From: an uncultured candidate division Zixibacteria bacterium
GTDB taxonomy: Bacteria; Zixibacteria; MSB-5A5; UBA10806; 4484-95
DNA length: 64,000 bases
NCBI GenBank assembly: GCA_963668625.2
Contig: CAXXKA010000001.1
Coordinates: 1-64,000, forward strand
Direction of reading: 5' to 3'
Part shown: positions 1,288-48,593 of the stretch, piece by piece
Layout: the number at the start of each line of letters is the position of its first letter
How positions within the stretch are numbered: the first letter of the stretch is position 1
Made by a program: the position numbers and the translations under genes
The notes under the pieces: generated by a model
Seen by the model: only the letters and a program-made list of their open reading frames with translations
Database searches by the model: none
What the model was told of the DNA's origin: nothing

Positions 1288-1344
1288 ACGTGAACAACGG
1301 GAATAAAATCAACGTTATAATTGTATTCTATAACGGAGCGAATA

Positions 1345-3345
1345 GTGAAGAATTTTAAACTTGTCTCGAAATATAAACCCAGCGGCGATCAGCCACAGGC
1401 CATAGAAAAGCTGGTTGCCGGTATTAACGAGGGGCGCCGTTTCCAAACATTGCTGGGTGTTACCGGTTCGGGGAAAACATTTACCGTTGCCAACGTGATA
1501 GAAAAATTGAATAAACCGACATTGGTGATATCGCATAACAAAACCCTGGCCGCCCAGTTATTCGGCGAGCTAAAATCTTTCTTTCCAGAAAACGCGGTCG
1601 AGTTTTTCATAAGTTATTATGACTATTATCAGCCGGAGGCTTACATTCCGTCCTCGGATACGTATATCGAAAAAGATACCTCGATGAACGACGATATCGA
1701 TCGTTTGCGCTTACGCGCGACCTCATCGCTTTTAGAACGTAAGGATGTCATTATAGTCGCCTCTGTTTCGTGTATCTACGGTCTTGGTTCTCCCGATGAT
1801 TACAAGGAGATGATGGTTATACTCGAGGCAGGTAAAACACATCCGCGTGATGAGCTACTCCGCGAGCTTATCAAGATCCAATACAACCGCAATGATATCG
1901 AATTCGGTCGCGGCTCGTTTCGTGTCAGGGGTGATGTCGTAGAGGTGCACCCGGCTTATGATGATATCGGTGTCAGGATTGAGTATTTCGGTGATGAAAT
2001 AGAGAAGATCACCCGGGTTAATCTCGTGGATGGCCACGTACTCGAGCAGAAAGACCGTCACGCGATTTATCCGGCCCGTCATTTCGTAACCGAAAGATAT
2101 AATATCATGCGCGCGGTGAAGTTCATAGAGGAAGAGCTTGAGGACAGGTTAGAGCATTACCGTCGTAACAACCAGCTATTGGAAGCGCAAAGAATCGCCT
2201 CCCGTACCCGTTACGATCTGGAGATGCTCAAGGAGATCGGCTATTGTTCAGGTATCGAAAATTATGCCCGTCACCTGACAAACCGAGAACCCGGCGAAAA
2301 ACCCTATACGCTTTTCGATTTCTTTCCCGATGATTTTCTGCTTGTCGTAGACGAGTCCCATCAAACTTTACCGCAGGTGCGGGGAATGTACCGGGGCGAT
2401 CGCTCCCGTAAACAAACACTGGTAGAGTATGGTTTCCGTCTGCCCTCGGCGCTAGATAACAGACCTTACGTGTTCGAGGAGTTCGAGGCGAAAATCAAAC
2501 AGGCGATATTTATTTCAGCCACGCCATCGGAGTTCGAGATAGAGAAATCGGACGGCGAGGTGATCGAACAAATTATCAGGCCTACCGGCTTGATCGATCC
2601 GGTGATCGAGGTGCGTCCGCTTAACACACAGGTGGATGATCTTATAAAAGAGGTACGCGCCGCTACCGCCGCCAACTCGCGAATTCTGGTAACGACTTTG
2701 ACTAAACGTATGGCCGAGGACTTGACCGATTACATGGCTAATATCGGTATCAAGGTGCGTTACCTGCATTCGGAGATAGACGCCATAGACAGGGTAGAGA
2801 TACTACGCGACTTGCGCTTGAAAGAGTTCGATGTTCTGGTCGGTATTAACCTTCTGCGCGAGGGGCTGGATTTGCCGGAGGTTTCACTGGTGGCGATACT
2901 CGATGCCGACAAAGAGGGTTTTTTGCGTTCCGGTACGTCGCTGATCCAGACCGCCGGCAGGGCCGCGCGCAACAAGGCGGGCAAGGTGATTTTATACGCC
3001 GATAAAATTACCAATTCCATGCAGCGGGCTATTGATGAAACAGGTCGCCGTCGTAAAAAGCAGATCGAATATAACGAGCTGCACGGCATCGTACCGCAAA
3101 CTATCGTAAAAACAAGAGATGAGATATTAATGACAACATCTTTTGCCGATAGCAAAACAGCAGTTCCGGGAGAGCCGACTATCAAGCAGGAGCTGGATGC
3201 CATCTCCAAACTCGAGGTTGAGGATAAGCTGGCGAATCTCATGAAAATGATGAACAAGGCGGCTAAGATGCTCGAGTTCGAGAAGGCGGCGATGTTGCGG
3301 GATGAGATCGAGAAACTTAAACAATCGATAAGGAAGAAAAAATGA
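1345..3345 (+). CDS. uvrB: Excinuclease ABC subunit B
   Basis: [25 protein letters not shown] beta-hairpin, [28 protein letters not shown]-terminal UVR motif. GTG start at 1345 chosen because of GGAG RBS (ORF track starts at 1321). Confidence 0.97.
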
Positions 3346-18770: not shown

Positions 18771-21251
18771 TTGAAATATGCTGCCATAATAATGATGATA
18801 TTAACACTGGCAAATGTATCGTTTGCCGATATAACTGATTTGATCTCGTTCAGATCATCTGAATTCGAGATAACCACCGAGCTTGCGCCCGACAGCAATT
18901 ACTACCATAAAGTCGAATGCAGTCTGGCCAATCAAACCCTGGCCGATAGCCCCGGACGACCCTGGCTTCCGGCAGTTAACTATGTCTACAGTTTGCCGCC
19001 GGGAATGAAAATCAGCGATGTTACTATTAACACGATCGAGAACGTGCTGTTGGAGGAGTTAGTCGAGCAGGTTTATCCCGGTCAGTACCCATTTGCCACC
19101 TGTATCGATTGTGATTGGCCGGATTTCGTGCCGCCCGATACCAGCCTTATTCTCGATGAACCACCGCTCGTATCGGTGATTAGCCCGGCAAGCTATGCCT
19201 GCGGTATGCCTGTTGGCGTGATTCAGGTAAGACCGATAAGCTACATCCGCGAATCGAACGCGCTGGTGCTAAATGAAAATATTTCGCTGACGATAAATAT
19301 CACTGCGAACGAGGAGCAGCCGCTGGAAGTTGTAAGCAGAAGTATCTACAGCCAGCAGGTGGCAGAAAGCTACCTTCACGGCATAGTACGCAACATCGCG
19401 GATATCGAAAATAATATGCCTGAAATACAAACGTTCGCTTATGATGATCCCAACGATCCGGAAAATATTCCTCCCGATTATATAGTGATTACCTCTCAAG
19501 CGCTATACGATGACGTGAGCCGGTTCGCAGAGTATAAACGTCAATCGGGACATCAGGTGGAGACAGCTGCCATCGAGGATATATATTCGATTTACACCGG
19601 CGCCGATAACCAGTCCCGAATCAGGGAATACCTTCGCCAGAAATATTCGGAGGGTACGCTGTACGCCGTATTTATCGGGGATGAGGATATCGTGCCGATG
19701 CGATATGCCTATTACTACAATTGGAACAACGGCGGCTTACCGGATATAGCCGATATGGTCCCCTGTGATATGTATTACGCTTGCCTGGATGGTACCTGGG
19801 ATGGTGATGGCGATGGGGTCTATGGTGAGCCCGATGATCATCCTGATCTGGCCGCCGATATATTCGTGGGGCGAATACCGGTAAACGATACCGGGCAGCT
19901 TGAAATCTGGCTCGATAAGCTCATGACATACGAGAATAATCCCGGCAACGGGGATCCGAGTTATTTGATGAATGTCGTGTTTTCGGCCGCCGACCAGTTA
20001 GCCGATGGAAGTCGGGATGAGTACATCGCCGAGAGTTTCGTATATAACCCGTATTTCGATGTCGATTACCTGACTTTCAGGGAATCGCCAAGTGGATATC
20101 ATCCAAACCCAAGCTCGCCTTACGGTCAGCAGCTCGTTGACTATTTCAATACCAATGGTGTTGGCTACTATTTTAGCCTAAATCATGGCAGCCCGGCCTG
20201 GTTTGCCCTTGCCAGCGCCGGAATAAATTGCGCTAACATGCCCTCGGAGGATTGCTGGCGCTCCGGTTTTACCACCGATCCGATCAGGGCGGAGTACCCT
20301 CCCGATTGGGGCTATATCGATGATATCGATTATGAATCGAACGGGCGCGTTTATGTTCATTCATCCATATCCTGTTATCTTGGCATGATGGATTGCCCGG
20401 AGGTGTTGCCCTGGAACTCAGATACGCTTTGCTATGCCGAATCGGATTTACTCATGCCCGGCGGCTCGGTTGCCGGTACGTATAATACCCGTCAGGGCTG
20501 GGTGTTTTCCTCCTCGGCACTAGAGCAAATGCGTGTGGAAATCCTGATGTCCGGTGTCGAGCGAAACCTGTTCGCTCCGGTGCACTATGCTATCAAGCCG
20601 TATTTCCCGAATAAACGAGATGTAGTATACTGCAATACATATTTCGGTGATCCGGGATTCGCTATTTACACCGAATCCCCGCGAACGTTCGAGGTTATAG
20701 CTCCCTCCGAACTTCAAATAGGCGGCTACGATATTTTCGTGCAGGTACTCGATAGCCAGAGCCGGTACGGGGAGGGGGATGTTCTGGTGACGCTTACGAA
20801 AGGCGATGAGCTATATCAACGCTCGTTAACCAACGCCTCAGGCTATGCCTACTTTGCCATAAACCCCGAAACGCCGGGGGAGATGAGTGTTACTTGTGTG
20901 AAACAAAACTATCTCAGGCACAGCCAGGTATTGGCTATCGAGCCGATCTGCGATATGGCCTCACCCGGAGATATCAACGGCGATGGCCAGGTTATCGGCT
21001 CGGATGTTTTATATGGCGTAAATTATTTTCGGGGAATCGGTAATCCTCCGGTATTGAAATGCTGGTGTCCTGATTACGAGCTTTATCATGCCGCGGATGT
21101 CAACGGTGACTGTCAGTTTATCGGTTCGGATATAACCTGCCTGGTAAATTATTTCCGCGGGATAACTACGCTTGCGGTTTGCCCGGGATGCTCGGAAAGT
21201 AGCCTGGCAGTGGAGGACAATGAAAACACGTCTGTTAGTTTCAAGCGCTAA
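18771..21251 (+). CDS. Gingipain-like C25 cysteine peptidase with propeptide and C-terminal dockerin-like EF-hand repeats
   Basis: PGRPWLP propeptide, DYIVIT, IGDED, D.YYA..DG.W, VGRIP, NHGS (His) and SISC (Cys) dyad, FGDP; GDINGDG..GSD and ADVNGDC..GSD repeats. Confidence 0.88.
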   Translation: MKYAAIIMMILTLANVSFADITDLISFRSSEFEITTELAPDSNYYHKVECSLANQTLADSPGRPWLPAVNYVYSLPPGMKISDVTINTIENVLLEELVEQVYPGQYPFATCIDCDWPDFVPPDTSLILDEPPLVSVISPASYACGMPVGVIQVRPISYIRESNALVLNENISLTINITANEEQPLEVVSRSIYSQQVAESYLHGIVRNIADIENNMPEIQTFAYDDPNDPENIPPDYIVITSQALYDDVSRFAEYKRQSGHQVETAAIEDIYSIYTGADNQSRIREYLRQKYSEGTLYAVFIGDEDIVPMRYAYYYNWNNGGLPDIADMVPCDMYYACLDGTWDGDGDGVYGEPDDHPDLAADIFVGRIPVNDTGQLEIWLDKLMTYENNPGNGDPSYLMNVVFSAADQLADGSRDEYIAESFVYNPYFDVDYLTFRESPSGYHPNPSSPYGQQLVDYFNTNGVGYYFSLNHGSPAWFALASAGINCANMPSEDCWRSGFTTDPIRAEYPPDWGYIDDIDYESNGRVYVHSSISCYLGMMDCPEVLPWNSDTLCYAESDLLMPGGSVAGTYNTRQGWVFSSSALEQMRVEILMSGVERNLFAPVHYAIKPYFPNKRDVVYCNTYFGDPGFAIYTESPRTFEVIAPSELQIGGYDIFVQVLDSQSRYGEGDVLVTLTKGDELYQRSLTNASGYAYFAINPETPGEMSVTCVKQNYLRHSQVLAIEPICDMASPGDINGDGQVIGSDVLYGVNYFRGIGNPPVLKCWCPDYELYHAADVNGDCQFIGSDITCLVNYFRGITTLAVCPGCSESSLAVEDNENTSVSFKR

Positions 21252-21260
21252 AGGAGATGT

Positions 21261-21623
21261 TTATTCGATCAGCGTAAAATAAAAAGCGACAAACTCGAAA
21301 CCGTCACCGGGATTAACGAAGAAATCGAGATGGTCCTCGCGAAACTCATCCGCGTTGTCGTTTGTCTCGCCTTGCCAGAGTTTCTCTGGAATATTGTTCC
21401 AGTCGCATAGCTCCATTGCAACCACTCTGATCGTACATCTGGGAGTTAACTTGCTATCGTAAACATCGTAATATTCGCCGACGACCAGGGGATCATCATA
21501 CTCGGTTTCGGATATATCAACCTCGCCGACATTCACTACACTGGCGGTTTTACGCCCCTCAATAATTTGTTCGACAAGCCTATCCGATACGAACTGGATT
21601 TTTCTTTTTACGAAATTACTCAT
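21261..21623 (-). CDS. ASCH domain protein
   Basis: 'IIEGRKTAS' G.KT motif and typical length. Confidence 0.7.
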   Translation of the reverse strand: MSNFVKRKIQFVSDRLVEQIIEGRKTASVVNVGEVDISETEYDDPLVVGEYYDVYDSKLTPRCTIRVVAMELCDWNNIPEKLWQGETNDNADEFREDHLDFFVNPGDGFEFVAFYFTLIE

Positions 21624-21875: not shown

Positions 21876-22517
21876 CTAACTTTGCTTGACCGTACCGAAG
21901 CCGCGAGTCACCGATTTACCCAATCCTAAGAATTGAGGCAGCTCGAAATTGATATAGAACGAGCCGAAGAACCCAGCTATCTCGGTTTCTTTCTGGATGA
22001 TGAACTCATCCTTGGTATTTAGCGAGATATCCAGATTCATATCAACCGGAATCTTAAAATTACGCGAAATCGCCAGAACATTACTTTCGAGAATTGTCGA
22101 CAGGGCCGAGTTACGTTGCTTAGTATTGGTTTTAATATCCTTACCAATCTCGTTCTCTTTTACGGTTAACCAGGGGGTAAGGAATCTATACCTTATTTTT
22201 TCCTCGGTTGGTCCTAATTCAACTTTTTTCTCGATTATTCGACGTTCGGTAATTTTCCAGGGGCTAACCTCGTTAATTTCCTCAAGCTTATCGTATATGT
22301 TCCAGAGAGTATCACAGCCCTCATTTACCGCGACAATGAGGGGTGCGCCACGTATAACCTTATACTGTATCAACGGATACTTGCCACCCGAGGAGTTAAA
22401 ATCAGGTTGTTCCAGCATTTTCTGGTTTAACGCGGAAATCTGCAACGATAATGGAGAAGCTCCGAGACTAACTTCCCGGTCGGTTTTTAAAGTTAATAAC
22501 AGATAATCTACAAGCAC
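21876..22517 (-). CDS. cas6: Orphan Cas6b-like RAMP protein
   Basis: YPLIQYK, YRFLTPWL, F..NFELP.FLGLGKSVTRGFGTV glycine-rich loop. Confidence 0.82.
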   Translation of the reverse strand: MLVDYLLLTLKTDREVSLGASPLSLQISALNQKMLEQPDFNSSGGKYPLIQYKVIRGAPLIVAVNEGCDTLWNIYDKLEEINEVSPWKITERRIIEKKVELGPTEEKIRYRFLTPWLTVKENEIGKDIKTNTKQRNSALSTILESNVLAISRNFKIPVDMNLDISLNTKDEFIIQKETEIAGFFGSFYINFELPQFLGLGKSVTRGFGTVKQS

Positions 22518-22623: not shown

Positions 22624-24504
22624 ATGAAAAATAAGACTTTTACCGATTTAGGTTTCAAATGCGGACTGGAGATACATCAGCAGCTACTTACCGAGCGTAA
22701 GCTGTTCTGCAATTGCCCGGCAGGCTATCGTAACGATAAGCCCGATGCCGAGATCATTCGCAGCATGCGGCCGACTCTATCCGAGCTGGGTGAGTATGAC
22801 GGTACTGCTTTGATGGAATTCAAAACGAAAAAGAAAGTGATATACCAGCTCTACCGGGATAACATGTGTACCTACGAGATGGATGATACGCCGCCGTTTC
22901 TGGTAAACCGTCAGGCCCTCGATATCGCTATCCAACTGGCGTTGCTGCTAAACTGCTCAATAGTCGATGAGCTTCACGTAGCTCGCAAGCAGTATCTCGA
23001 TGGTTCGATCCCGACCGGTTTCCAGCGCACCGCTATAGTCGGCGTGGGTGGCTGGGTACCGTACAAGGGCAGGAAGATCAGGATATCTCATACCTGTCTG
23101 GAGGAGGATGCCTGTCGCGAGGTCTCCGATGAGGGACATGTGATTACCTGGCGCACCGACAGACTGTCCATGCCGCTTATCGAGGTGATTACCGAACCGG
23201 ATATGATTAACCCGGATGAGGCTCGTGAGGTTAATGCCCTTATCGGGCGCGTGTTGAAATCCTCAGGATTGGTTCGTCGTGGTATCGGCAGCGTCCGTCA
23301 GGATGTCAATGTATCAATTACCGGCGGTACACGAGTCGAGATGAAAGGTATCTTGAAAACCGGTTATGTCGATAAGATGACTGCTATCGAGGCCTTGAGG
23401 CAGAGATGTTTATTGGATATTAAAGATGAGCTTAAAAAGCGTGGCTTGAAAAAAGAATCATTCGAGGTAGCAAAGAAAGATATGACCACAGTATTGGCTA
23501 ATTCGACTCTGTCATCGTTTATAAATAAAAATATCGATAAGGGTAAGCATATCGGTGCGGTTAAATTGCCAGGCTTTTACGGCTTGATGAGCAAAGAAAT
23601 CCAGCCCGGTCGTACTTTTGCCGATGAGTTTTCCGGCAGGGTGCGAGTTATCGCCTGTTTGGATGCGTTACCTAACCTGGCCGTATCGGATATCCCTTCG
23701 CTCGAGATAGATAAATCAGTCTGGAACAAGATACAGAAAGATATGGGATGCTCCGATAACGATGTAGTCGTTCTTATCTGGGGGCCGGAGGACGATATTA
23801 TCACGGCCATGAACGAGATTGAGATACGCGCTATTGATGCTTTCGATGGTGTGCCGAACGAAACTCGACAGCACTTGAAAGACTACACCACTACGTTCGA
23901 GCGAATTCTTCCCGGGGCCGATCGTATGTATCCCGACACCGATAGTCCTCCGGTGGAGATACCGGCCTGTACCGTTGAGGGATTCCAGCGCCTTCAACCC
24001 AAACGTTCCTACGAGTTCGAGGAGAAATGGGAAAGCCTCGGTGTGGAATCGACAATAGCAAGCCGAGTCGTTGTATCATCATTTAAAAATATGTTCGATC
24101 ACCTGGTGGAGATGCATCTGACTAACCCCACGCGTCTGTATATGATATTGATGAAAGCCTCCAAGCGAAACGATAAGCTGGAGAAGCTCGATTTCGATGA
24201 GGTTGCCGCTATTTTCGATTCGGATATAGGCCTGTCAATAACGGGGGAGGAGATAGTAAATCTCCTAGCCGAATCCGCCCGTGATACGCTTAAAGAGAAT
24301 TTCGAAAAACTTCTGGATAGCAAACGTTCTGTTTCCGAGGAGGAAATAGAACGGGCTGTAGAAGAAGTCATAAGTGGTCAGGATGGTGATAATTACCGTA
24401 GTGATGACGATAAGTTGAACTACCTTATCGGAAAAGTAATGGCTAAATTCAATAGCTCCGTGGATGGCGCTATGATAAAAGAGCTGGTTAAAGCAAAGAT
24501 ATAA
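22624..24504 (+). CDS. gatE: Glu-tRNA(Gln) amidotransferase subunit E (archaeal-type)
   Basis: GLEIHQQL, MRPTLSELGEYD.TAL, RKQYLDGSIPTGFQRT, LEEDACR, RGIGSVRQDVNVSI, AspRS-like insertion, GVPNETR, LPGADRMYPDTD. Confidence 0.9.
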   Translation: MKNKTFTDLGFKCGLEIHQQLLTERKLFCNCPAGYRNDKPDAEIIRSMRPTLSELGEYDGTALMEFKTKKKVIYQLYRDNMCTYEMDDTPPFLVNRQALDIAIQLALLLNCSIVDELHVARKQYLDGSIPTGFQRTAIVGVGGWVPYKGRKIRISHTCLEEDACREVSDEGHVITWRTDRLSMPLIEVITEPDMINPDEAREVNALIGRVLKSSGLVRRGIGSVRQDVNVSITGGTRVEMKGILKTGYVDKMTAIEALRQRCLLDIKDELKKRGLKKESFEVAKKDMTTVLANSTLSSFINKNIDKGKHIGAVKLPGFYGLMSKEIQPGRTFADEFSGRVRVIACLDALPNLAVSDIPSLEIDKSVWNKIQKDMGCSDNDVVVLIWGPEDDIITAMNEIEIRAIDAFDGVPNETRQHLKDYTTTFERILPGADRMYPDTDSPPVEIPACTVEGFQRLQPKRSYEFEEKWESLGVESTIASRVVVSSFKNMFDHLVEMHLTNPTRLYMILMKASKRNDKLEKLDFDEVAAIFDSDIGLSITGEEIVNLLAESARDTLKENFEKLLDSKRSVSEEEIERAVEEVISGQDGDNYRSDDDKLNYLIGKVMAKFNSSVDGAMIKELVKAKI

Positions 24505-24725: not shown

Positions 24726-25538
24726 CTAAATCTTCCAGACCTCAGTCACCTGCTCCATCATTCGTTCCAGATAGCTTAACTTTAGCTGGCAATGCTTGTC
24801 GCAAAACGCCTCTGCTGGTTCGGGATGAGTCTCCAAGAAAATACCATCCACACCAACAGCAGCGGCGGCACGGGCAAGAGGTATGATGAATTCCGGCGAA
24901 CCTCCAGTGGAATCGCCCTCCGAGCCGGGTTTCTGTACCGAGTGCGTACTGTCATACACGACAGGGTAGCCGAGGTTTCTCATGACGATAAGCGATCGAA
25001 AATCTACCACCAGGTCGTGATAGCCGAAAGTCGTGCCGCGTTCGGTCAGCATGATTTTAACGCCACCGGCCTCCTCTGCTTTGCTGGCCGCCTCGCTCAT
25101 TCCCTCCGGTGACATGAACTGCCCTTTTTTGATATTAACAGCTTTGCCGGTTTTCGCGGCGGCTTTGATTAGCTCGGTTTGACGGCATAAGAAAGCAGGT
25201 ATCTGCAACACATCCGCGATATCGGCCGCCTCCTCGACCTCCTGGGTAGTGTGGATATCGGTCAGGATAGGCAAATTGAATTCGGCTTTGACCTGTTTTA
25301 ATATCTTTAATGCTTTACTGATTCCGATCGTCGAGAACGAATTAACCGAGGAGCGATTCGCTTTCATGTAAGAGGATTTGTAGATCACTTGAACTTTGAA
25401 TTTACTTGCGACTCTGACAATCTCTTCGGCCGCCTCGAATGCTATATCTTTCGATTCGACCACACAGGGGCCGGCAATTATGAACGGCTTGCCGCCACCT
25501 ATTTCAACGCCATTTACCGATATTTTCTTATTGGCCAT
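24726..25538 (-). CDS. kdsA: KDO8P synthase
   Basis: IAGPCVVES, KANRSS, QIPAFLCRQT, NIKKGQF, TERG, DSTHSVQ. Confidence 0.95.
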   Translation of the reverse strand: MANKKISVNGVEIGGGKPFIIAGPCVVESKDIAFEAAEEIVRVASKFKVQVIYKSSYMKANRSSVNSFSTIGISKALKILKQVKAEFNLPILTDIHTTQEVEEAADIADVLQIPAFLCRQTELIKAAAKTGKAVNIKKGQFMSPEGMSEAASKAEEAGGVKIMLTERGTTFGYHDLVVDFRSLIVMRNLGYPVVYDSTHSVQKPGSEGDSTGGSPEFIIPLARAAAAVGVDGIFLETHPEPAEAFCDKHCQLKLSYLERMMEQVTEVWKI

Positions 25539-25915
25539 GGTTTTTCCTCCGCGGATATGACTTGCCAGATCGATTTTCGCCCCTTTGATTTGAACGGCCG
25601 TTCCAGTCGTAGTTGAACGATAAAATCCTGAGTCTCGACCTCAACCATCCCGATAAACAAACCCTCACCACGAATAACGATGTTATCGTTTTCGATGAAG
25701 TACTTTTCGTATTTGGAATTCCCCATATACGCCAGAGCAACGGTTTTGATATCAGTCCAGAATAGCATATATCCCGAATCTACCTCGGTCTGGTATGCCA
25801 GTAATTCATCATCGGCGGGGTAAGGTAAATTAGTGTAATCGACCTCAGGTTTCTCCTTAGGCATACAGGAAAATATAGCTGACGCGATAATTATAAATAC
25901 TACTAATTTTCTCAT
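25514..25915 (-). CDS. Hypothetical lipoprotein
   Basis: Lipobox IFSC; overlaps both neighbours in the operon. Confidence 0.7.
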
Positions 25916-27588
25916 TCGTTCTTAGAAAGCTTTGATTCCGGTATTTTATCCGAGGAAATCTCGCGTTCCTTACGATATTTCAAAGCCGCCTCAACCAGGC
26001 CCTTGAACAACGGATGTGCCTCCATCGGCCGCGATTTCAACTCGGGATGGAACTGGCATCCGACAAAAAACGGATGGTTCGGCAGCTCGGCTATCTCCAC
26101 TAATTTCTCATCGGGAGATAAGCCGGAGAATACCATGCCTGCCTCCTCCAGAGTCTGACGGTATTCGTTGTTTACCTCGTAGCGGTGGCGATGTCTCTCG
26201 TTTATTTTAAGCTTGCCGTATAGTTTGCTTACGATCGTACCACGTTTGATATTGCAGGGATAAGCTCCCAACCTCATCGTACCGCCCATCTTGGTTATAT
26301 GACGTTGCTCATCCATGAGGTGAATGACCGGGTATTTGGTTTCCTGGTTGAACTCGTAAGAATTGGCGTTTTCCAGCTTGCAGATATTGCGGGCGTATTC
26401 GATTATCGCGCATTGCAGGCCGAGGCAGATACCGAAAAACGGCATTTTGTTCTCACGGCAATACTGGATGGCATCTATTTTACCCTCGACACCTCGTTCG
26501 CCGAAACCTCCCGGTATGAGTACGCCATCGACATTATCCAGATAATGCTCGGCGCCTTTCTCGACCAGGTCCTCTGAGGATATCCAGACTAACTCGACAT
26601 GGGTATCATTGGGTACGCCGGCATGAATGAACGATTCGGTGATAGACTTGTAAGCATCCTTGAGGTTGATATATTTTCCACAGATGGCTATCCTGACCGT
26701 ATGTATCGGCTTTTTGATCTTCTCGACTATCTTCCGCCATTCACCCAGATCGAGGTCTTTACATAGCAGTTTCAGATAATGCACGACCAGGTTATCGACC
26801 AGTTCAAGATGGAATAATATCGGCACCTCGTAAATAGTTTCGCAGTCGATATCCTGTATTACTGCCTCGGGGACTACATTGCAGAACATGCCGATTTTCT
26901 TTTTGATATCACGGGTAAGCTCGCGAGTAGTGCGACATATCAGTATATCGGGTTGTATACCGATTTCTCGCAGCATCTTGACCGAATGCTGGGTAGGCTT
27001 GGTCTTCAGCTCATCGGAGGTTTCCAGATAGGGAACGAGGGTAAGGTGAATATACAGCACGTTCTCTTTGCCGTGCTCTAATCCCATCTGACGGATAGCC
27101 TCCATGAATGGCATAGCCTCGATATCGCCGACAGTGCCGCCGATCTCGGTGATAATGATATCGACATCCTCGTTTTGACGGGCCAGGCGGGTGCAGCGAG
27201 ACATTATCTCATCGGTAATATGAGGGATAACCTGCACGGTTGCGCCCAGGTAGTCGCCCCGGCGCTCGCGCTGAATGACAGCATCATAGACCTGCCCGGA
27301 GGTGACATTGGAAAGCTGGTTCAGGTTAACATCAATGAAACGCTCGTAATGTCCCAGGTCCAGATCGGTTTCGGAACCATCATCAAGGACGAATACCTCG
27401 CCGTGCTGGAACGGATTCATCGTACCGGGATCGACATTAATATACGGATCGAACTTCTGAATCCTGACCTCGAGACCCCGGGATTTCAACAGCAGTCCGA
27501 TACTGGCCGCCGCGATGCCTTTGCCCAGCGAGGATGTCACACCGCCGGTGATGAAAATGAATTTCGTTTGTTTCCCTGATTTAGACAT
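25912..27588 (-). CDS. pyrG: CTP synthase
   Basis: [48 protein letters not shown]. Confidence 0.98.
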
Positions 27589-27592
27589 TACC

Positions 27593-28342
27593 TTACCCTA
27601 AACTTTCCAGAATCTGTTCGGCTTTGAACAAATCCTCCTGCGTGTCAATACCCGAAAATATCTGTGAGGCTATTACACAATATATATCATAACCACTTTC
27701 TAAAACTCTAAGTTGCTCGAGGCTCTCGATACGTTCGAGAACCGATTGGCCGAGTTTGACATAAGTTTGTAAAAACTCGGCAGTGAATCCGTAAATGCCA
27801 AAGTGACGGTAAATCGGGAGGGTACGAAGGCTTACCTCTTTATCTTTTTCGTTGAACCAGGGGATACGGGATCTCGAAAAATATAGCGCTCGACTATTTT
27901 TATCGAGTACTACTTTTACGATATTTGGGTTATTCAATTCCTCGTAACTCGATATCTTGCTACAGGCTGAACTCATCAACGCTTTGGGGTTATCGATAAG
28001 TACATTGGCTGTTTTCTCAATAACTATAGGCGATATTAATGGTTCATCCCCTTGAATATTTATATAGATATCCGCTTTGAAATCCTTTGCCACATGAGCC
28101 ACCCGCTCGCTGCCACAGGTAAAATTCCCGGTGGTCATCACGACATTGCCCTCGTTTTGCTCGATAGTATCATAGATGCGCTGATCATCGGTTGCAACTA
28201 CGACATCATCAAGTATAGTAGCTTTTTTCGCTTGATTATAGACCCTGACAATAATGGGTACTCCGCCCAGCAGGGCGAGGGGTTTGCCCGGAAACCTCTT
28301 AGAGGCGTATCTTGACGGGATTATTCCAATTACTTTCGGCAC
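27593..28342 (-). CDS. kdsB: 3-deoxy-manno-octulosonate cytidylyltransferase
   Basis: [38 protein letters not shown]. Confidence 0.95.
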
Positions 28343-42899: not shown

Positions 42900-44348
42900 A
42901 TGTCTGATGTTCGTGTTCGTATCGCGCCATCACCCTCGGGCTACCTTCATATTGGTACGGCCAGAGCGGCGCTTTTCAACTGGCTGTTCGCCCGTCAAAA
43001 CGGCGGCAAGTTTCTTCTACGCATCGAGGATACGGATCAATCGAGATCATCGCAGGAGATGGTTGATGTTATAATAGAGAGTCTGAAATGGCTTGGGTTG
43101 GAATCGGATGAGCCGCCGGTTTTTCAATCGCAGCGGTTGGATATGTATAAAAAGTGCGCCGATCAGTTGCTGGAAAGCGGCCATGCTTACAGGTGTTTCT
43201 GTAATCCCGATGAGCTTAAAGCCAAACAAGAGGCCGCCCGGGCGGAGAAACGCAATCCGCGCTATGATAGAACCTGTATGAATCTTTCAGAAGCCGAGAT
43301 ACAGAATAACCTCGATGATGGTAAACCGTTCGCGATCAGGTTGAAACTTCCCGAGGGCGAGACGACTTTCAACGATTCGGTAGTAGGGGAGACCTCAAAA
43401 AAACACGAGGACCTCGATGATTTCATAATCTGCCGTCGCGATGGCCGGGCCGTATATAACCTGGCGGTTGTCGTGGATGACCATGAGATGGGAATCAGCC
43501 ATGTGATACGGGGTAACGATCATATCTCGAACACGTTCAAGCAGATTCTTATCTACAAGGCTTTAAATTACGAATTGCCACAGTTTGCGCATGTGCCGTT
43601 GATTCTCAATAAGGGCAAGTCCAAGATGTCCAAGCGGGATGGCGCGGCGGCGGTTACCGATTACGCCAAGCTGGGATATCTCAAGGAGGCGGTGGTTAAT
43701 TTCATCGCGCTTCTGGGGTGGTCGCCGGGGGATGACCGTGAGGTGATGAGTTTGCAGGAGATGATCGACTCGTTCGATCTTGGGCGTATCAATAAAGCCA
43801 ATGCTGTTTTCGATATGGACAAACTCACCTGGATGAATGGAGAGTATATCAGGAACACCGACACCTACAAGCTGGTCGATATGCTTCGTCCTTACCTGGT
43901 GGAACCCGGGCTGGTGACGCAGCTTTTTATCAACACTCGCTGGGATTTCATGATGAGTTTCGTGGATATGATGAAAGAACGATGCAAGCTTCTGACCGAT
44001 TTCGCCGAGCAGGGAAGTTATTTCTTTACTGATAAATTCGATTACGAGGAGAAGGGTGTTAAAAAGCATTTTGCGGCTCCCGAATCCAAAGATTTAATTA
44101 ACCAATGGGTTGATATCCTTAAGGGCATAGATTCCTGGAATAAGGATAATATCGAACAAGCTTTACGGGATTTATCCGATAAGTTGAAGGTAAAACCGGC
44201 CATGTTGATACATCCAACCAGGCTGGGAATATCCGGCACTACCAAAGGGCCATCACTTTTTGACATGATGGAGCTTTTGGGCAAGGATGCTTGTGTAAGC
44301 CGGATGTCAAGGGCTCTTGATTTTGTTAATACTTTGGAGGTTAAATAG
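42900..44348 (+). CDS. gltX: Glutamate--tRNA ligase
   Basis: RIAPSPSGYLHIG (HIGH), LRIEDTD, HVIRG.DH, KMSKR. Confidence 0.97.
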   Translation: MSDVRVRIAPSPSGYLHIGTARAALFNWLFARQNGGKFLLRIEDTDQSRSSQEMVDVIIESLKWLGLESDEPPVFQSQRLDMYKKCADQLLESGHAYRCFCNPDELKAKQEAARAEKRNPRYDRTCMNLSEAEIQNNLDDGKPFAIRLKLPEGETTFNDSVVGETSKKHEDLDDFIICRRDGRAVYNLAVVVDDHEMGISHVIRGNDHISNTFKQILIYKALNYELPQFAHVPLILNKGKSKMSKRDGAAAVTDYAKLGYLKEAVVNFIALLGWSPGDDREVMSLQEMIDSFDLGRINKANAVFDMDKLTWMNGEYIRNTDTYKLVDMLRPYLVEPGLVTQLFINTRWDFMMSFVDMMKERCKLLTDFAEQGSYFFTDKFDYEEKGVKKHFAAPESKDLINQWVDILKGIDSWNKDNIEQALRDLSDKLKVKPAMLIHPTRLGISGTTKGPSLFDMMELLGKDACVSRMSRALDFVNTLEVK

Positions 44349-44380: not shown

Positions 44381-44410
44381 TTGACTTTAGCGCAAATTTG
44401 ATTATTTAAT
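44381..44410 (+). promoter_or_regulatory. Sigma70-like promoter for hairpin RNA and tRNA-Gln
   Basis: TTGACT-N18-TTTAAT. Confidence 0.55.
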
Positions 44411-46000
44411 AGGTGAGTGTCTTTTGAAGGCCAGTTGCAGCGTATATCCCCCCCATTGAGTTGCATTGCCTGTCGGGAGACATTCTTCTACTCTCTGGGG
44501 TATCGTCCAATGGTAGGACAGCAGACTCTGGATCTGTTGATCGGGGTTCAAATCCTCGTACCCCAGCTTTGACTCGAAAGTGTGCCTTTCCGCCAAAATG
44601 TGGAAAGGCTTTTTGTATGTGGGATATAGAGTTCCGTGGAAAATAGTACAGTTCGAAAGTATAATATTCAGTAGTTTCCGCTGTTCATGCCTATTTTTAC
44701 CTAAGTATTTGGTATATGCATTGTTAGCGAGTTCTAAAATTTTTATACCTGTCTCAAAGTAATTCACGTCAGCATTATTATGAGCTTCCACTTTGCTGGC
44801 GATTTCGACTAATTCATTTTGCCATTCTAATGATTTTCGCTCCCAGAAGCTCTCAGATATCACTCCTGATAGTTTATCCTCATAAGCTTTATCAATAAGC
44901 CCCTGGATGTGCTTAGCACGCTTATTTAAAGTCTTTAGAGCTTTGTTGTGATAGTCAATTTTGTCTTTGTGGCTGTCCCTTAAAGCCTTCTTGATATCCG
45001 CAACCAGGTTGTCATCAATTTCTATTCTCTTTACAACATCAGCCAGCAGTTCAGCCAATTTTTCTTCCCGAATATAAGTATTTCCGCATTTTCCCTTGAA
45101 ACCGGTACAACGGTAATAAATATATTTGCCCTTTTTTAGTTCAGGTGTCATTGCGCAACCACACTTATCGCATTTTAATAGACCGGCAAAAGCAAAATTC
45201 CGTTTTGTCTCCTTGGGATGATTTGTCCCCTCAAGTACAGCCTGAACCTGATCAAAAAGCTTTTTAGTGATTATAGGCTGATGTTTACCCTGATATCGCT
45301 TGCCTTTCCAGAGTATTTCACCGTAGTAAATCGGATTTTGCAAAATCTTATGAATTCCAGATTTACTGATAAATGTAGTTTTATTTGTGCAGAATCCAGC
45401 TTCTCTGGCAACATCCATTAGCATTTGTAACGAATAATTGCCAGTTGCATATAATTCAAACAGCTTTCTAACCAGGGGAGCTTTGAGTTCATCGATATCG
45501 AGCAGATGCGTACTTTTATTAGATTTATAGCCAACCGGTGCTTTTGTCGGCCATTCGCCTTGAGCCGCTTTTTCGGTAAGTCCCTTTTTGACTTCCTCAG
45601 ATAGGTTGTCGATATAGTTTTTCGCCATTAGTACTTTGATACCATGCAGGAATTTCTCGGAAGAATGGGAGTTTTGCGAAATTATACAACCTTCTTTTAC
45701 AAAATGTATTTCAATGTTAAGTTCATCAAGAGTAATCCAGTCCCTGATATTTCGATATAGACGGTCAGTCTTTTCAGCCAAAACGATATTGCAGGTTTTA
45801 TTCGATTTGAGGAATTTGAGCATTTTATTAAAACCGGTTCGGCCAGTAGATTTAGCAGTCTCGATATCTTTAAATTCCTCAGCTAAAACAATACCTTTCT
45901 CTTGAGCGTAATTCCTCAAAAGCTTTAACTGAGAGGGGATAGAGAAACCTTCCTGCTCCTGCTCTTTTGATGATACTCTGGCGTAAATAACGGCTTTCAT
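44402..46000 (-). CDS. Large serine recombinase (integrase)
   Basis: YARVSS catalytic motif, DRLYR, APVGY, ILQNPIYYG, H.PII, FAGLLKCDKCG..YYRC..C Zn ribbon, coiled coil; last 54 aa antisense to tRNA and leader. Confidence 0.93.
   Translation of the reverse strand: MKAVIYARVSSKEQEQEGFSIPSQLKLLRNYAQEKGIVLAEEFKDIETAKSTGRTGFNKMLKFLKSNKTCNIVLAEKTDRLYRNIRDWITLDELNIEIHFVKEGCIISQNSHSSEKFLHGIKVLMAKNYIDNLSEEVKKGLTEKAAQGEWPTKAPVGYKSNKSTHLLDIDELKAPLVRKLFELYATGNYSLQMLMDVAREAGFCTNKTTFISKSGIHKILQNPIYYGEILWKGKRYQGKHQPIITKKLFDQVQAVLEGTNHPKETKRNFAFAGLLKCDKCGCAMTPELKKGKYIYYRCTGFKGKCGNTYIREEKLAELLADVVKRIEIDDNLVADIKKALRDSHKDKIDYHNKALKTLNKRAKHIQGLIDKAYEDKLSGVISESFWERKSLEWQNELVEIASKVEAHNNADVNYFETGIKILELANNAYTKYLGKNRHEQRKLLNIILSNCTIFHGTLYPTYKKPFHILAERHTFESKLGYEDLNPDQQIQSLLSYHWTIPQRVEECLPTGNATQWGGYTLQLAFKRHSPIK
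44415..44485 (+). ncRNA. Putative structured RNA (long G-U-rich hairpin) upstream of tRNA-Gln
   Basis: GAGTGTCTTTTGA/TCGGGAGACATTC, AGGC/GCCT and TGCAGC/GTTGCA stems; C7-containing loop. Confidence 0.5.
44496..44566 (+). tRNA. tRNA-Gln (anticodon CTG), no encoded CCA
   Basis: Cloverleaf TGGGGTA/TACCCCA, GTCC/GGAC, GCAGA-CTCTGGA-TCTGT, CGGGG-TTCAAAT-CCTCG. Confidence 0.95.
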
Positions 46001-46004
46001 CAGC

Positions 46005-46166
46005 TTACTTAATCCTCTTTTTATCGATATCTTTTATCACCAGGGTGCGTACGTATTCTTGAATACTTTTACCCTCAAGCGCGCTGATAGCTTTAAGCTG
46101 CTTTCGTTCATCATCTGTAAATCTGATATGAACCATCTTGTTTAAATTCCGTTTTCGATCTTTCAT
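46005..46166 (-). CDS. Ribbon-helix-helix DNA-binding protein (53 aa)
   Basis: MVHIRFTDDERKQLKAISALEGKSIQEYVR pattern; directly upstream of the integrase. Confidence 0.7.
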   Translation of the reverse strand: MKDRKRNLNKMVHIRFTDDERKQLKAISALEGKSIQEYVRTLVIKDIDKKRIK

Positions 46167-46338
46167 GATATATATATAACCACAATACATAAAGTTGTCA
46201 ATAATTAAAATCACCGTACATGGTTGGACATAGTTTTCTATATAGACTAATAAGAATTCTGCAAAGATAGAAAATATAATAAAAAACCTTGTCCAACTGT
46301 GTACTATGTCCCAATGGCAATGAATCAGCATTCCATCA

Positions 46339-48474
46339 TCAAGAGTCATTTAATGCTATTCCTCTATATGTTATCGGTTTAGTACCTGTTGTCTGTCGAT
46401 ATTTTGTTAAACCTCGCTCAATCAATAAGCGGCCAAATTGCGTGCTTGTTACAATCTTTTCGTTATTTGATTCAGCCCAAAATTTGTATTCACTATAGAG
46501 TTCTTTGGCTGTAACTTCCATTTTTAAACCTAAAATGCAACGTTCTTCAATAAATCCAGCTAAAATGTCCATTTCTGAACGATAAGAACTGGTAGCAACT
46601 AATACATCATCGGGCGGTTTAAATCCTTCTTTTTGCCACATTAAACATCCCTCAATAGCCCAATTTAATATTGCTGGGAGTTCTTTTTTTAGCTTTTGAA
46701 ATAATTCTTTATCAACAAGGTGATCGGGAATAGTGAATCTGAATGGGATCAATCTAATTCTTCTCCAAATTGCATCATCAGTACCTCTAATAACAGGTTT
46801 GTGGTTCGTGCTAAGCCACACTTTGCAAACTGGATTAAACTCAAAGAATTCGCCATGTAAAAACCGTGCTGTAATTCTATCACCTCCGGTTATTTGTTTT
46901 ATAAATGCTTCAGACAAATATCTTCCCTGATCCGTCTCTGATGCCGATACAAGTCTAATCCCATGCAATCGTGCGACATCGTTTGGAATACCTTGATTAT
47001 TTTTAACTAATAAAGTATCTGTTGGAGTTTGAGATGCATAGTCTCCTAATAATGACATAATTATATTTAAAAATGTAGATTTTCCATTATTACCTTCTCC
47101 AAATAAAATAAAAAAGCACTGTTCCGAAATACTTGCTGTCATAGAGTATCCAACAGCTTTTTGTAAAAAACCGATTAACTTATTATTATCCTGTAAAATT
47201 GTAGATAAAAAGTCATTCCAGAGGTTGCTTTTTAAGTTGGGGGTGAACTCGATTTGACTTATTTTGGAGAGCATCTTTGTTCGTTCATGCTGAAGAAGAT
47301 TACCGGACTTTAAATCTATTATACCATTTGCACAATTAAATAAGAAAGGTTCTTTATCAAACTTTTGCTGAGTAACTGGCTGCAATGCTTTGGCTTCTTC
47401 TAACATACCCGATATATGACTGTGTGACTGGAAAGATAGAGATTTTTTCTTCATTTTTTGTCGATATTCTTCATCGCTAATTTTAGTTGATTCTGTCAAT
47501 AGCAATTCAGCTATAGAATGAGCATAAGTTCTGATTTTCTTTGCATCGTCTTTAAACCATCTTTTTCCATCCCATATAAACCATTTCCCATTGTCAGTAC
47601 AATATAGGATGTCTTTTCCGAAAAGATGACTTAACCTTTTAGCATTCCCCAAATCAGACAAGTCAAAAATCTGCTCATCAGTTTGTGATTCCGGGAAATT
47701 AGGTTTCGGCGGATAATTGCAAACGCTTTTAGCAATTCGCCTCAAATCGCGATCATCCTTCGGTGGCGAGCAATTGCTATTTAAACTTTGTAGTGAAATA
47801 TAAATATCTTCCTCACCTAATCCTTTTGATCTAAGTTTGCCTGCTTCGGATGTTAGCCAATTATCGCGACGGCCTTTCAAAATTATTCCTTTCTTATTAT
47901 CATCATGCCGTTTCGAGCTTTTTAACAATTGTTCAAGCTCAGATGGAAGCATAGCAATACTCACATCCTGGGGATGATTATCTTTTTGCCAAACATATTT
48001 CCCCCCATTCGGGTGAATACTACCAGGCAAAGCTACGTAGCCATTTGAACGAACGTCAATGCCTGTTGGTAATTTACCGGTGGAATTACTTGGCTTGAAA
48101 TTACTGGGACGTTTGAAATAAATATGTTTACCACCCGTAGGTGTGTTACTTATAACAGTATTACTATACTCAATATTTAATTCCGCGCATAATATCTGCC
48201 AGGCTTTAACACCATCAATACCGTTTTTTACATCCAGGTCAAATACTACTAATCCAGTTTTTTTGCAATCTAATCCCCAATTCGCATTTGGATACATCTT
48301 ATGCCATCGTTTTATTTGCTCAGGATCATTTGTTGAATTTTTAAATCCTTTCTTTGTTAAAGGTGTTTTTTCGCCAGGATTTAGAGGGAATATAAACCCT
48401 CCCCATTTGATAAATTGCAAAAGTGTATCCAGAGTGATTGTCTGGGCTTTATTATCTTTTGTCAGAGTTTTCAT
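46339..48474 (-). CDS. Bifunctional Prim-Pol primase fused to D5/P4-type SF3 helicase
   Basis: IFPL..K.P, NWG, VFDLD, TPTGGKHIYF, GIDVR...YV.LPGS.HP; PriCT-like 'GRRDN.L'; SDLGNA D5_N; GEGNNGKST, KQITGGD, TNHKP, DAIWRR. Start 48474 preferred over 48573. Confidence 0.9.
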   Translation of the reverse strand: MKTLTKDNKAQTITLDTLLQFIKWGGFIFPLNPGEKTPLTKKGFKNSTNDPEQIKRWHKMYPNANWGLDCKKTGLVVFDLDVKNGIDGVKAWQILCAELNIEYSNTVISNTPTGGKHIYFKRPSNFKPSNSTGKLPTGIDVRSNGYVALPGSIHPNGGKYVWQKDNHPQDVSIAMLPSELEQLLKSSKRHDDNKKGIILKGRRDNWLTSEAGKLRSKGLGEEDIYISLQSLNSNCSPPKDDRDLRRIAKSVCNYPPKPNFPESQTDEQIFDLSDLGNAKRLSHLFGKDILYCTDNGKWFIWDGKRWFKDDAKKIRTYAHSIAELLLTESTKISDEEYRQKMKKKSLSFQSHSHISGMLEEAKALQPVTQQKFDKEPFLFNCANGIIDLKSGNLLQHERTKMLSKISQIEFTPNLKSNLWNDFLSTILQDNNKLIGFLQKAVGYSMTASISEQCFFILFGEGNNGKSTFLNIIMSLLGDYASQTPTDTLLVKNNQGIPNDVARLHGIRLVSASETDQGRYLSEAFIKQITGGDRITARFLHGEFFEFNPVCKVWLSTNHKPVIRGTDDAIWRRIRLIPFRFTIPDHLVDKELFQKLKKELPAILNWAIEGCLMWQKEGFKPPDDVLVATSSYRSEMDILAGFIEERCILGLKMEVTAKELYSEYKFWAESNNEKIVTSTQFGRLLIERGLTKYRQTTGTKPITYRGIALNDS

Positions 48475-48593
48475 GATCAAACCCTTGTTTTTTATTCTCC
48501 GATTCATCCTGATCCCATTCATGTAGCAAGTCGAAAAAAGCGCAGATATTATCTCGCGATTCTTTATCCGCAAGGATTATGGATTCTGGTTGA

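Follow-up and report, generated by a model that had tools for sequence, protein, structure and literature searches.

The window analyzed here, a stretch of 64,000 nucleotides from an uncultured candidate division Zixibacteria bacterium (assembly GCA_963668625.2, contig CAXXKA010000001.1, positions 1 to 64,000), carries an intact gene for GatE, the tRNA-binding subunit of the amidotransferase GatDE, which acts on tRNA-Gln mischarged with glutamate, or Glu-tRNA(Gln). The gene, at 22624-24504 on the forward strand, begins with ATG and encodes 626 amino acids, with no internal stops in its open reading frame (ORF) translation. Its partner gatD is encoded elsewhere in the genome, the two genes recur together across the phylum, the nearest clade in the GatE phylogeny is that of Heimdall-type Asgard archaea, and the tRNA-Gln of the window is of the bacterial type. 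As judged from sequence, the balance leans toward a working GatDE that would amidate bacterial-type Glu-tRNA(Gln) beside glutaminyl-tRNA synthetase (GlnRS) and, in this genome, also beside the bacterial amidotransferase GatCAB.

A sequence-only reading of the window had recognized a full-length gatE with GatE-specific features among clearly bacterial genes (uvrB, kdsA, kdsB), and this identification holds. The translation contains four GatE motifs (RPTLSELGEYD, DGSIPTGFQRT, RRGIGSVRQDVNVSI, and PGADRMYPDTD). The protein passes both NCBIfam GatE equivalog models (NF003107, 540 bits against a cut-off of 456; TIGR00134, 469.7 bits against 319.55) and scores below the cut-offs of all six GatB models (56.6-155.8 bits, where 314.8-680 would be required). 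Pfam assigns GatB_N to residues 12-448, interrupted by an insertion resembling aspartyl-tRNA synthetase (AspRS), the GAD domain, at residues 300-395, and GatB_Yqey to the tail at residues 538-626. In sequence comparisons with the PDB, the protein can be aligned over its whole length to two GatE chains, those of P. abyssi (1zq1_C, E 2.1e-105) and M. thermautotrophicus (2d6f_C, E 3.7e-98), whereas GatB chains align with it over the core only, at residues ~93-272 (E 1e-12 to 1e-24). IQ-TREE phylogenies place the query inside GatE, which is split from GatB by a 100/100 branch. Model scoring and tree building, two of the checks put forward by the earlier reading, confirm that the gene is a true GatE, distinct from GatB.

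The catalytic residues are retained. His18, Glu160, and Glu187 align with His15, Glu157, and Glu184 of M. thermautotrophicus GatE (positions counted on the PDB alignment), which according to a part of PMC2330236 form a Mg2+ site whose mutation kills the enzyme. Across an alignment of 34 bacterial-type GatE sequences (A1), there is no variation at the E-E-D and P-L-x-E positions, and the histidine is at least 90% conserved. The elements that contact the tRNA are more varied. Bacterial GatB reads the first base pair with a 3-10 turn, and GatE has a short basic loop at that place; in the GatE tail, a GXXAXGX motif stands where GatB has a Lys-rich motif (both as given in a section of PMC2811023). 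The first-base-pair loop of the window protein is as long as that of archaeal GatE and keeps its basic residues (V-R-R-G vs V-K-R-G), with substitutions that follow the clades: V-K-R-G-L-G-T-I-R-Q-D-L in archaea, and V-R-R-G-I-G-S-V-R-Q-D-V or V-R-T-G-I-G-A-A-R-Q-D-V in bacteria. The tail motif, reduced to G..A.G, is absent from all 26 bacterial-type sequences, the query among them, and is found in 15 of 44 archaeal-type ones, so that it is a weak criterion, non-universal in archaea too; on the Zixibacteria branch of the alignment the tail has diverged further still. The tail domain of archaeal GatE binds the tRNA D-loop. Taken from the alignment, the loop and tail changes would fit either adaptation to a bacterial tRNA or an altered specificity, and are proof of neither.

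The earlier reading had also noted that no gatD is adjacent. This stands for the surroundings of gatE; a canonical gatD is nonetheless encoded, unlinked, at C8:472882-474084 on the reverse strand of the source assembly (G000), scoring 506 bits against a cut-off of 324 and with no internal stops. Its product has the architecture GatD_N, Asparaginase, and Asparaginase_C, and aligns with 1zq1_A (E 4.3e-116), including the TGGTIAS, HGTDT, and RKMH stretches that hold the asparaginase Thr, Thr-Asp, and Lys. A transposase fragment adjoins this gatD. The genome search that had been suggested for gatD, gatCAB, and glnS found all of them. A complete glnS shares the contig of gatE (C1:89094-90668, 767.9 bits), gatA and gatB are neighbors on C10 (571 and 559 bits; gatB at C10:219384-220805), and gatC lies on C8 (71.3 bits). 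Also present are asnS, the gene for asparaginyl-tRNA synthetase (AsnRS; 587 bits), and an asnB-type gene (526.7 bits); no asnA was found in G000. Because glnS, gatCAB, and asnS are all encoded, no known route to Gln-tRNA or Asn-tRNA is missing, and GatDE is redundant on paper in this genome.

The distribution of these genes was surveyed in 151 genomes drawn evenly from the phylum, the source genome included; the closest named homologues are Zixibacteria. In this sample, gatE occurs in 99 genomes at E<=1e-60 (96 above the model cut-off), gatD in 103, gatB in 89, glnS in 127 (126 above cut-off), asnS in all 151 (148 above cut-off), and gltX, which encodes glutamyl-tRNA synthetase (GluRS), in 148. 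Among the 41 genomes of nearest relatives, 20 have gatE above the cut-off. Of the 104 genomes with at least one subunit, 98 have both, and neither is found in 47 of the 151. Sorted by route, 48 genomes combine GatDE, GatB, and GlnRS; 42 have GatDE and GlnRS; 17 have GlnRS alone; 16 have GatB alone; 14 have GatB and GlnRS; 8 have GatDE and GatB; and 6 have a single subunit, gatD or gatE, always with GlnRS. No genome therefore lacks both GlnRS and GatB, GatB being present in each of the 24 that have no GlnRS. Single-contig genomes with gatE include G013, G064, G074, G120, and G152. In many genomes gatD comes directly after gatE (e.g., G044:C4 198886-200757 and 200876-202078), and in the family of the window genome they are unlinked. 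In three genomes of one family (G031, G077, G132), a stretch of ~10-16 kb on a single contig holds gltX, glnS, gatE, and gatD, and in two of these (G077 and G132) glnS is divergent from gatE and less than 1.1 kb away. This clustering connects GatDE with Glu/Gln-tRNA metabolism.

There is no sign of gatE decay in frames, in the ratio of nonsynonymous to synonymous substitution rates (dN/dS), or in divergence. All full-length gatE matches in the phylum sample have open frames, as do the full-length gatD matches save for a few single stops in draft genomes. Among four gatE genes of the window family, the proportion of synonymous differences (pS) is ~0.74-0.82, which is saturated, and the nonsynonymous proportion (pN) is 0.18-0.33; the one pair for which dN/dS could be computed gave 0.067, most pairs being saturated at synonymous sites. 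Between the source genome and G004, identity is 55.7% for GatE, 51.2% for GatB, and 66.4% for GluRS, so that the divergence of GatE is close to that of GatB and somewhat larger than that of GluRS.

The presumed substrate is the tRNA-Gln(CUG) of the window. The sequence-only reading had placed this gene right behind gltX and had given it a U1-A72 pair, and both points are borne out: the acceptor stem is UGGGGUA/UACCCCA, with discriminator G73, and the gene begins 148 nt downstream of gltX. Two of the 46 tRNA genes in the source genome encode tRNA-Gln (CUG and UUG), and both have U1-A72 and G73; by eye, an A1-U72 acceptor stem is found in tRNA-Trp only, and tRNA-Asn is likewise U1-A72. The tRNA-Gln(CUG) has U1-A72 and G73 in all 30 phylum genomes whose loci were fetched, comprising 17 with gatD and gatE, 2 with one subunit, and 11 with neither. 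The tRNA-Glu genes seem to differ in their first pair: tRNA-Glu(CUC), at C8:565850-565925 on the forward strand, appears by eye to begin and end with a G1-U72 wobble, to have A73, and to encode its CCA, and tRNA-Glu(UUC) has G1-C72. A weak first pair in tRNA-Glu could be relevant to its rejection by amidotransferases. The 3' end of a large serine recombinase ORF (44402-46000, reverse strand) overlaps the coordinates of tRNA-Gln(CUG), and a gene for a P4-family primase (46339-48573, reverse strand) lies beyond it; 44402-48573 is probably an integrated mobile element, with the tRNA-Gln gene as its attachment site.

The order gltX, tRNA-Gln(CUG) recurs in at least 10 other genomes (coordinates, by eye). 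These include G006, G012, and G015, which lack any amidotransferase, so the adjacency is no mark of an indirect pathway. The single-contig genome G013 has two copies of gltX (C1:1515383-1517004 and C1:2815047-2816665), each followed by a tRNA-Gln(CUG). A divergent type of GluRS (gltX loci L074-L079 and L063) is common to GlnRS-less genomes of two genera in different families, namely G044, G045, and G059 (genus g30) and G052, G057, G061, and G075 (genus g34). These proteins score lowest against the model (~464-473 bits), differ in sequence near the T. thermophilus Arg358 position, and may have been separately acquired or specialized.

By homology with the archaeal enzyme, a GatD dimer and two GatE subunits would bind Glu-tRNA(Gln). 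GatE would phosphorylate the gamma-carboxyl of the attached glutamate at the predicted Mg2+ site formed by His18, Glu160, and Glu187; GatD, of the asparaginase type, would free ammonia from glutamine or asparagine; and amidation of the intermediate by GatE would yield Gln-tRNA(Gln). The predicted substrate is a bacterial-type tRNA-Gln (U1-A72, G73) on which the one GluRS, a bacterial one, would have placed glutamate. What is proposed here of activity, substrate, and physiological role is drawn from these likenesses; GatDE may serve as a second path, or may clear Glu-tRNA(Gln), and would be neither the sole nor the main route.

Several observations weigh against this proposal. The archaeal enzyme reads A1-U72 tRNA-Gln (parts of PMC2330236 and PMC9499178), and acceptance of U1-A72 by the bacterial-type enzyme is an assumption. 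The charging of tRNA-Gln with glutamate is also presumed, as gltX would supply Glu-tRNA(Gln) if its product were non-discriminating. Replacement of Arg358 by Gln in T. thermophilus GluRS gives a non-discriminating enzyme (PMC2978374), and the window GluRS has Arg at this position, the residue of the discriminating enzyme. The same Arg is found in all 101 phylum GluRS sequences compared (100 fetched regions of 99 genomes, drawn from the 148 genomes with a gltX match, plus the window), including 23 from genomes without GlnRS. The Arg358 rule for discrimination was dropped, Arg being kept even in these 23, where GluRS must be non-discriminating. The G..A.G motif, which is linked to tRNA discrimination, is absent, and the choice of substrate may have changed, to judge from the alignment. 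Finally, all 98 genomes with gatD and gatE also have GlnRS (90) or GatB (8), which makes GatDE formally redundant, and none of the 151 has GatDE while lacking both. Wherever GlnRS is missing (24 genomes), GatB is kept, and GatDE may thus be unable to carry the supply of Gln-tRNA alone. The genomes in this comparison are kin, and the 24 without GlnRS come from few lineages, so that this evidence is weak and the co-occurrence is a pattern and no statistic; as such it argues against GatDE as the main route.

A GatDE that has been repurposed, acting on another substrate or in a special situation and no longer in bulk Gln-tRNA(Gln) synthesis, is a lesser possibility, and rather unlikely. Candidates are Asp-tRNA(Asn), amidated to make asparagine on the tRNA, a single tRNA-Gln isoacceptor, the use of asparagine as amide donor under particular nitrogen regimes, and an aminoacyl-tRNA with a non-translational use. 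The enzyme is conserved despite being redundant with GlnRS or GatCAB wherever it occurs, its first-base-pair loop carries clade-specific substitutions, and the tRNA-Asn of the source genome shares the U1-A72 pair of its tRNA-Gln. Against this, the catalytic site is unaltered, gatE and gatD cluster with gltX and glnS in three genomes, and in a transamidosome the GatE-specific insertion would be expected to collide with AspRS (PMC2330236, in part). With AsnRS in every genome of the sample and an asnB-type gene in G000, GatDE is needed for neither Asn-tRNA nor asparagine, and a necessary role in making Asn-tRNA was rejected on the first of these grounds. To our knowledge, no alternative substrate of GatDE has been described.

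Returning to a GatDE that amidates Glu-tRNA(Gln), its lasting redundancy leaves some room, tentatively, for a specialized or altered function. It is conceivable, at odds well below even, that bacterial-type GatDE constitutes a distinct selected lineage spread over several uncultivated phyla, in which a non-redundant role has been retained that is not the bulk supply of Gln-tRNA. Possible roles of this kind are the clearing of Glu-tRNA(Gln) made by an imperfectly discriminating GluRS, an amidation limited to one isoacceptor or one condition (e.g., with asparagine as donor), and the use of a new aminoacyl-tRNA substrate through remodeled tRNA-recognition elements.

Bacterial-type GatE extends beyond this phylum. 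A search of 1.84 billion representatives at 50% identity returned 608 proteins at E<=1e-30. The closest homologues with an organism name are Zixibacteria (P0012, P0020, P0030, P0070, P0073), and close homologues labeled otherwise comprise one WOR-3 and one metagenome-assembled genome (MAG) named "uncultured Ignavibacteria"; these labels were assigned by the submitters and may be mistaken. A profile of alignment A1, which represents the non-Zixibacteria part of the clade, retrieved Calditrichia, KSB1, Aminicenantes (two), Krumholzibacteria, "Clostridiales bacterium," and "bacterium," with 7 organism names among the 120 matches listed and none of them archaeal. In the ESM Atlas, 79% of the members of a GatE cluster are bacterial. 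A FastTree phylogeny of 127 full-length representatives and named sequences places the query in a clade of 43 rows (support 99), with P0152 as its sister (support 87); the names attached to close relatives of P0152 are Heimdallarchaeota or Asgard group. IQ-TREE analyses under LG+C20 (posterior mean site frequencies, PMSF) comprised a quick tree of 75 rows and a careful tree of 44 rows. In the former, the bacterial-type and Heimdall-type clades are sisters with a support of 98 in the SH-like approximate likelihood ratio test (SH-aLRT); in the latter, each of the two clades is supported at 100/100 and their union at 98/97. The Heimdall-type sequences (P0271, P0277, P0280, and P0294, named Heimdallarchaeota or Asgard group at NCBI) share ~41-42% identity with the window protein, judged from the representative P0152, and, unlike the bacterial-type sequences, retain the archaeal loop signature and, for the most part, G..A.G.

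An old transfer from an Asgard-like archaeon is the likely origin suggested by these trees, favored since the bacterial clade branches next to a single, particular group of archaea. The outgroups, however, consist of five GatB (75-row tree) and four GatB (44-row tree), all from one phylum, and the rooting is weak. When all 25 archaeal-type rows are forced together, the log-likelihood (lnL) falls by 6.3, and the approximately unbiased test does not reject this arrangement (p-AU 0.311), which tells against a transfer. The constrained tree, with the GatB root on the bacterial stem, is what would be expected of ancient vertical inheritance, in which GatDE is a relic from before the split of bacteria and archaea that was kept in a few bacterial phyla. 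The depth and diversity of the bacterial-type clade, which holds 43 of the 127 full-length representatives, and phylogenetic work that suggested GatDE in LUCA, the last common ancestor of all life, as summarized in a portion of the review PMC9499178, are also on its side. Such a relic is nevertheless improbable, if less so than some readings below. The unrooted tree joins the bacterial clade to the Heimdall-type Asgard sequences, a root on the bacterial stem makes the Heimdall-type group the earliest archaeal branch, and the bacterial distribution is patchy, being restricted to few and mostly uncultivated phyla with neither subunit in 47 of the 151 genomes sampled here. P0371, labeled "Thermoplasmata archaeon" and encoded on a 5,156,303-bp contig, groups within the clade of bacterial-type sequences and has the bacterial loop signature; either its label is wrong or a second transfer took place.

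The sequence-only reading had suggested that the lineage may obtain its Gln-tRNA through a GatDE pathway fitted to bacterial tRNA identity, here taken as the main route, or that GatE may work with a glutaminase other than GatD. Its premises (a genuine GatE, a bacterial-type tRNA-Gln, and no gatD next to gatE) are sound, but the gene inventory contradicts both forms of the proposal, which is now very improbable. Complete glnS and gatA, gatB, and gatC are present, a gene content that the earlier reading had itself named, along with a lack of transamidation activity, as refuting, and in none of the 151 genomes is GatDE the only route; the canonical gatD of G000, and the joint occurrence of the two subunits in nearly every genome that has either, mean that no other glutaminase is needed to explain GatE.

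Archaeal contamination, a binning chimera, or a decaying gene without function can be dismissed with near certainty: the assembly is of the metagenome type (4.30 Mb in 10 contigs, 95.9% complete, with 1.11% estimated contamination) and aspS is missing from it, but gatE lies on a 676,581-bp contig between bacterial neighbors, GC content is 0.445-0.458 on all 10 contigs and an unremarkable 0.41-0.52 around gatE, the gene is found in 96 of 151 genomes above cut-off (single-contig ones among them) and in relatives, which does not bear out the chimera with archaeal DNA that the earlier reading had listed as a possible refutation, and the open frames, catalytic residues, and dN/dS far below 1 are not those of a relic. 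Neither a bacterial- nor an archaeal-type aspS was found in the G000 assembly, where AsnRS and lysyl-tRNA synthetase (LysRS) are the only class IIb enzymes; a candidate archaeal-type AspRS at C1:195199-196509 was rejected as being LysRS. All 20 relatives checked have aspS, and its absence from G000 is most likely an assembly gap.

The predicted system resembles the archaeal GatDE of known structure (2D6F, with tRNA-Gln, and 1ZQ1) in its subunits, its Mg2+ residues, its short basic loop, and its domain order, in which a cradle with the AspRS-like insertion is followed by a helical domain and the YqeY-like tail; full-length alignments range from E 1e-98 to 1e-116. It differs in its bacterial host, in having tRNA-Gln of the U1-A72 type only, in a bacterial-type GluRS as partner synthetase, in the lack of the tail G..A.G, in clade-specific loop substitutions, and in the unlinked gatD and gatE of G000. 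GlnRS coexists with GatDE here, whereas it is absent from all archaea according to a passage of PMC9499178. Bacterial GatCAB, also encoded in G000, catalyzes the same overall reaction, and its GatB is a paralogue of GatE. The two enzymes differ in their glutaminase, which in GatCAB is the amidase GatA with GatC and in GatDE the asparaginase-like GatD. GatCAB reads tRNA-Gln and tRNA-Asn with U1-A72 (PMC2330236, in part), and GatB, unlike GatE, has the 3-10 turn and the Lys-rich tail motif and lacks the AspRS-like insertion (PMC2811023, in part). A combination of GlnRS, a single GluRS, and an amidotransferase, as found here, is described in a section of PMC3927822 for Thermus thermophilus, Deinococcus radiodurans, and Pseudomonas aeruginosa; in these three species the amidotransferase is GatCAB, GluRS is discriminating, and indirect glutaminylation is called defunct.

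Coordinates of the features discussed are collected in Table 1. The immediate surroundings of gatE include kdsA, kdsB, and pyrG on one side and, upstream and divergent, a Cas6b-like gene at 21876-22517 on the reverse strand (Cas6b_N and Cas6b_C, 88.5 and 41.8 bits). Tandem Repeats Finder, at a minimum score of 80, reported no repeat array anywhere in the window, and the gene looks like an orphan cas6. An ASCH-domain gene (21261-21623, reverse strand) adjoins it. Just upstream of this region, 18771-21251 on the forward strand encodes an 826-aa Peptidase_C25 (gingipain-family) protein whose C-terminus, by eye only, resembles paired dockerin-type calcium-binding repeats.

Table 1. Features of the window and gene clusters in other genomes (window positions unless a genome and contig are given)
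Feature	Position	Strand	Basis or remark
uvrB	1321-3345		bacterial neighbor gene
gatE, Glu-tRNA(Gln) amidotransferase subunit E (kinase/transamidase and tRNA-binding), 626 aa	22624..24504	+	GatE cut-offs, full-length PDB alignments
His18 codon (predicted Mg2+ site)	22675..22677	+	aligned with M. thermautotrophicus His15
Glu160 (LEEDA) and Glu187 (PLIEV), predicted Mg2+ site	23101..23184	+	aligned with M. thermautotrophicus Glu157, Glu184
Short basic loop (G-L-V-R-R-G-I-G-S-V-R-Q-D) where GatB has its 3-10 turn	23257..23301	+	alignment; PMC2811023 (in part)
AspRS-like (GAD) insertion, residues 300-395, in GatE but not GatB	23521..23808	+	PF02938 30.8 bits, cut-off 23.4
YqeY-like tail, residues 538-626, diverged and without G..A.G	24235..24501	+	PF02637 32.6 bits
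kdsA	24726-25538	-	bacterial neighbor gene
pyrG	25912-27588	-	bacterial neighbor gene
kdsB	27593-28342	-	bacterial neighbor gene
gltX, bacterial-type GluRS, sole GluRS gene found in G000	42900..44348	+	TIGR00464 565 bits
tRNA-Gln(CUG), U1-A72 and G73, presumed substrate once mischarged with Glu	44496-44567	+	single tRNA in window
gltX-glnS-gatE-gatD cluster	G077:C39:5267-16324
gltX-glnS-gatE-gatD cluster	G132:C28:11712-21564
gltX-glnS-gatE-gatD cluster	G031:C34:17930-33844

GatDE is a textbook example of a domain-specific translation enzyme. It was called an "archaeal signature protein" in 2008 (PMC2330236), was said to occur "exclusively in archaea" in 2009 (PMC2811023), and was described as confined to archaea today in 2022 (PMC9499178). 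Full-text literature searches, in which coverage of subscription journals is limited, found no paper on a bacterial GatDE. NCBI automatic annotation already calls these MAG proteins GatE; as far as searched, bacterial GatDE genes are present in databases and undiscussed in print. Models of the entry of glutamine into the genetic code, of the failure of archaea to take up GlnRS, and of the co-evolution of tRNA-Gln with its amidotransferases rest on archaeal exclusivity. A bacterial GatDE, if it works, would be a natural experiment in which the enzyme operates with a U1-A72 tRNA-Gln and a bacterial GluRS, with GlnRS alongside. It allows a test of whether the first base pair is recognized by its identity or by its mere weakness, and of whether GatDE and GlnRS are truly incompatible, and it poses the puzzle of why selection should maintain an amidotransferase that looks redundant. 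As one more data point, the Asgard connection bears on gene flow between the domains and, if true, would record an old exchange between Asgard archaea and bacteria.

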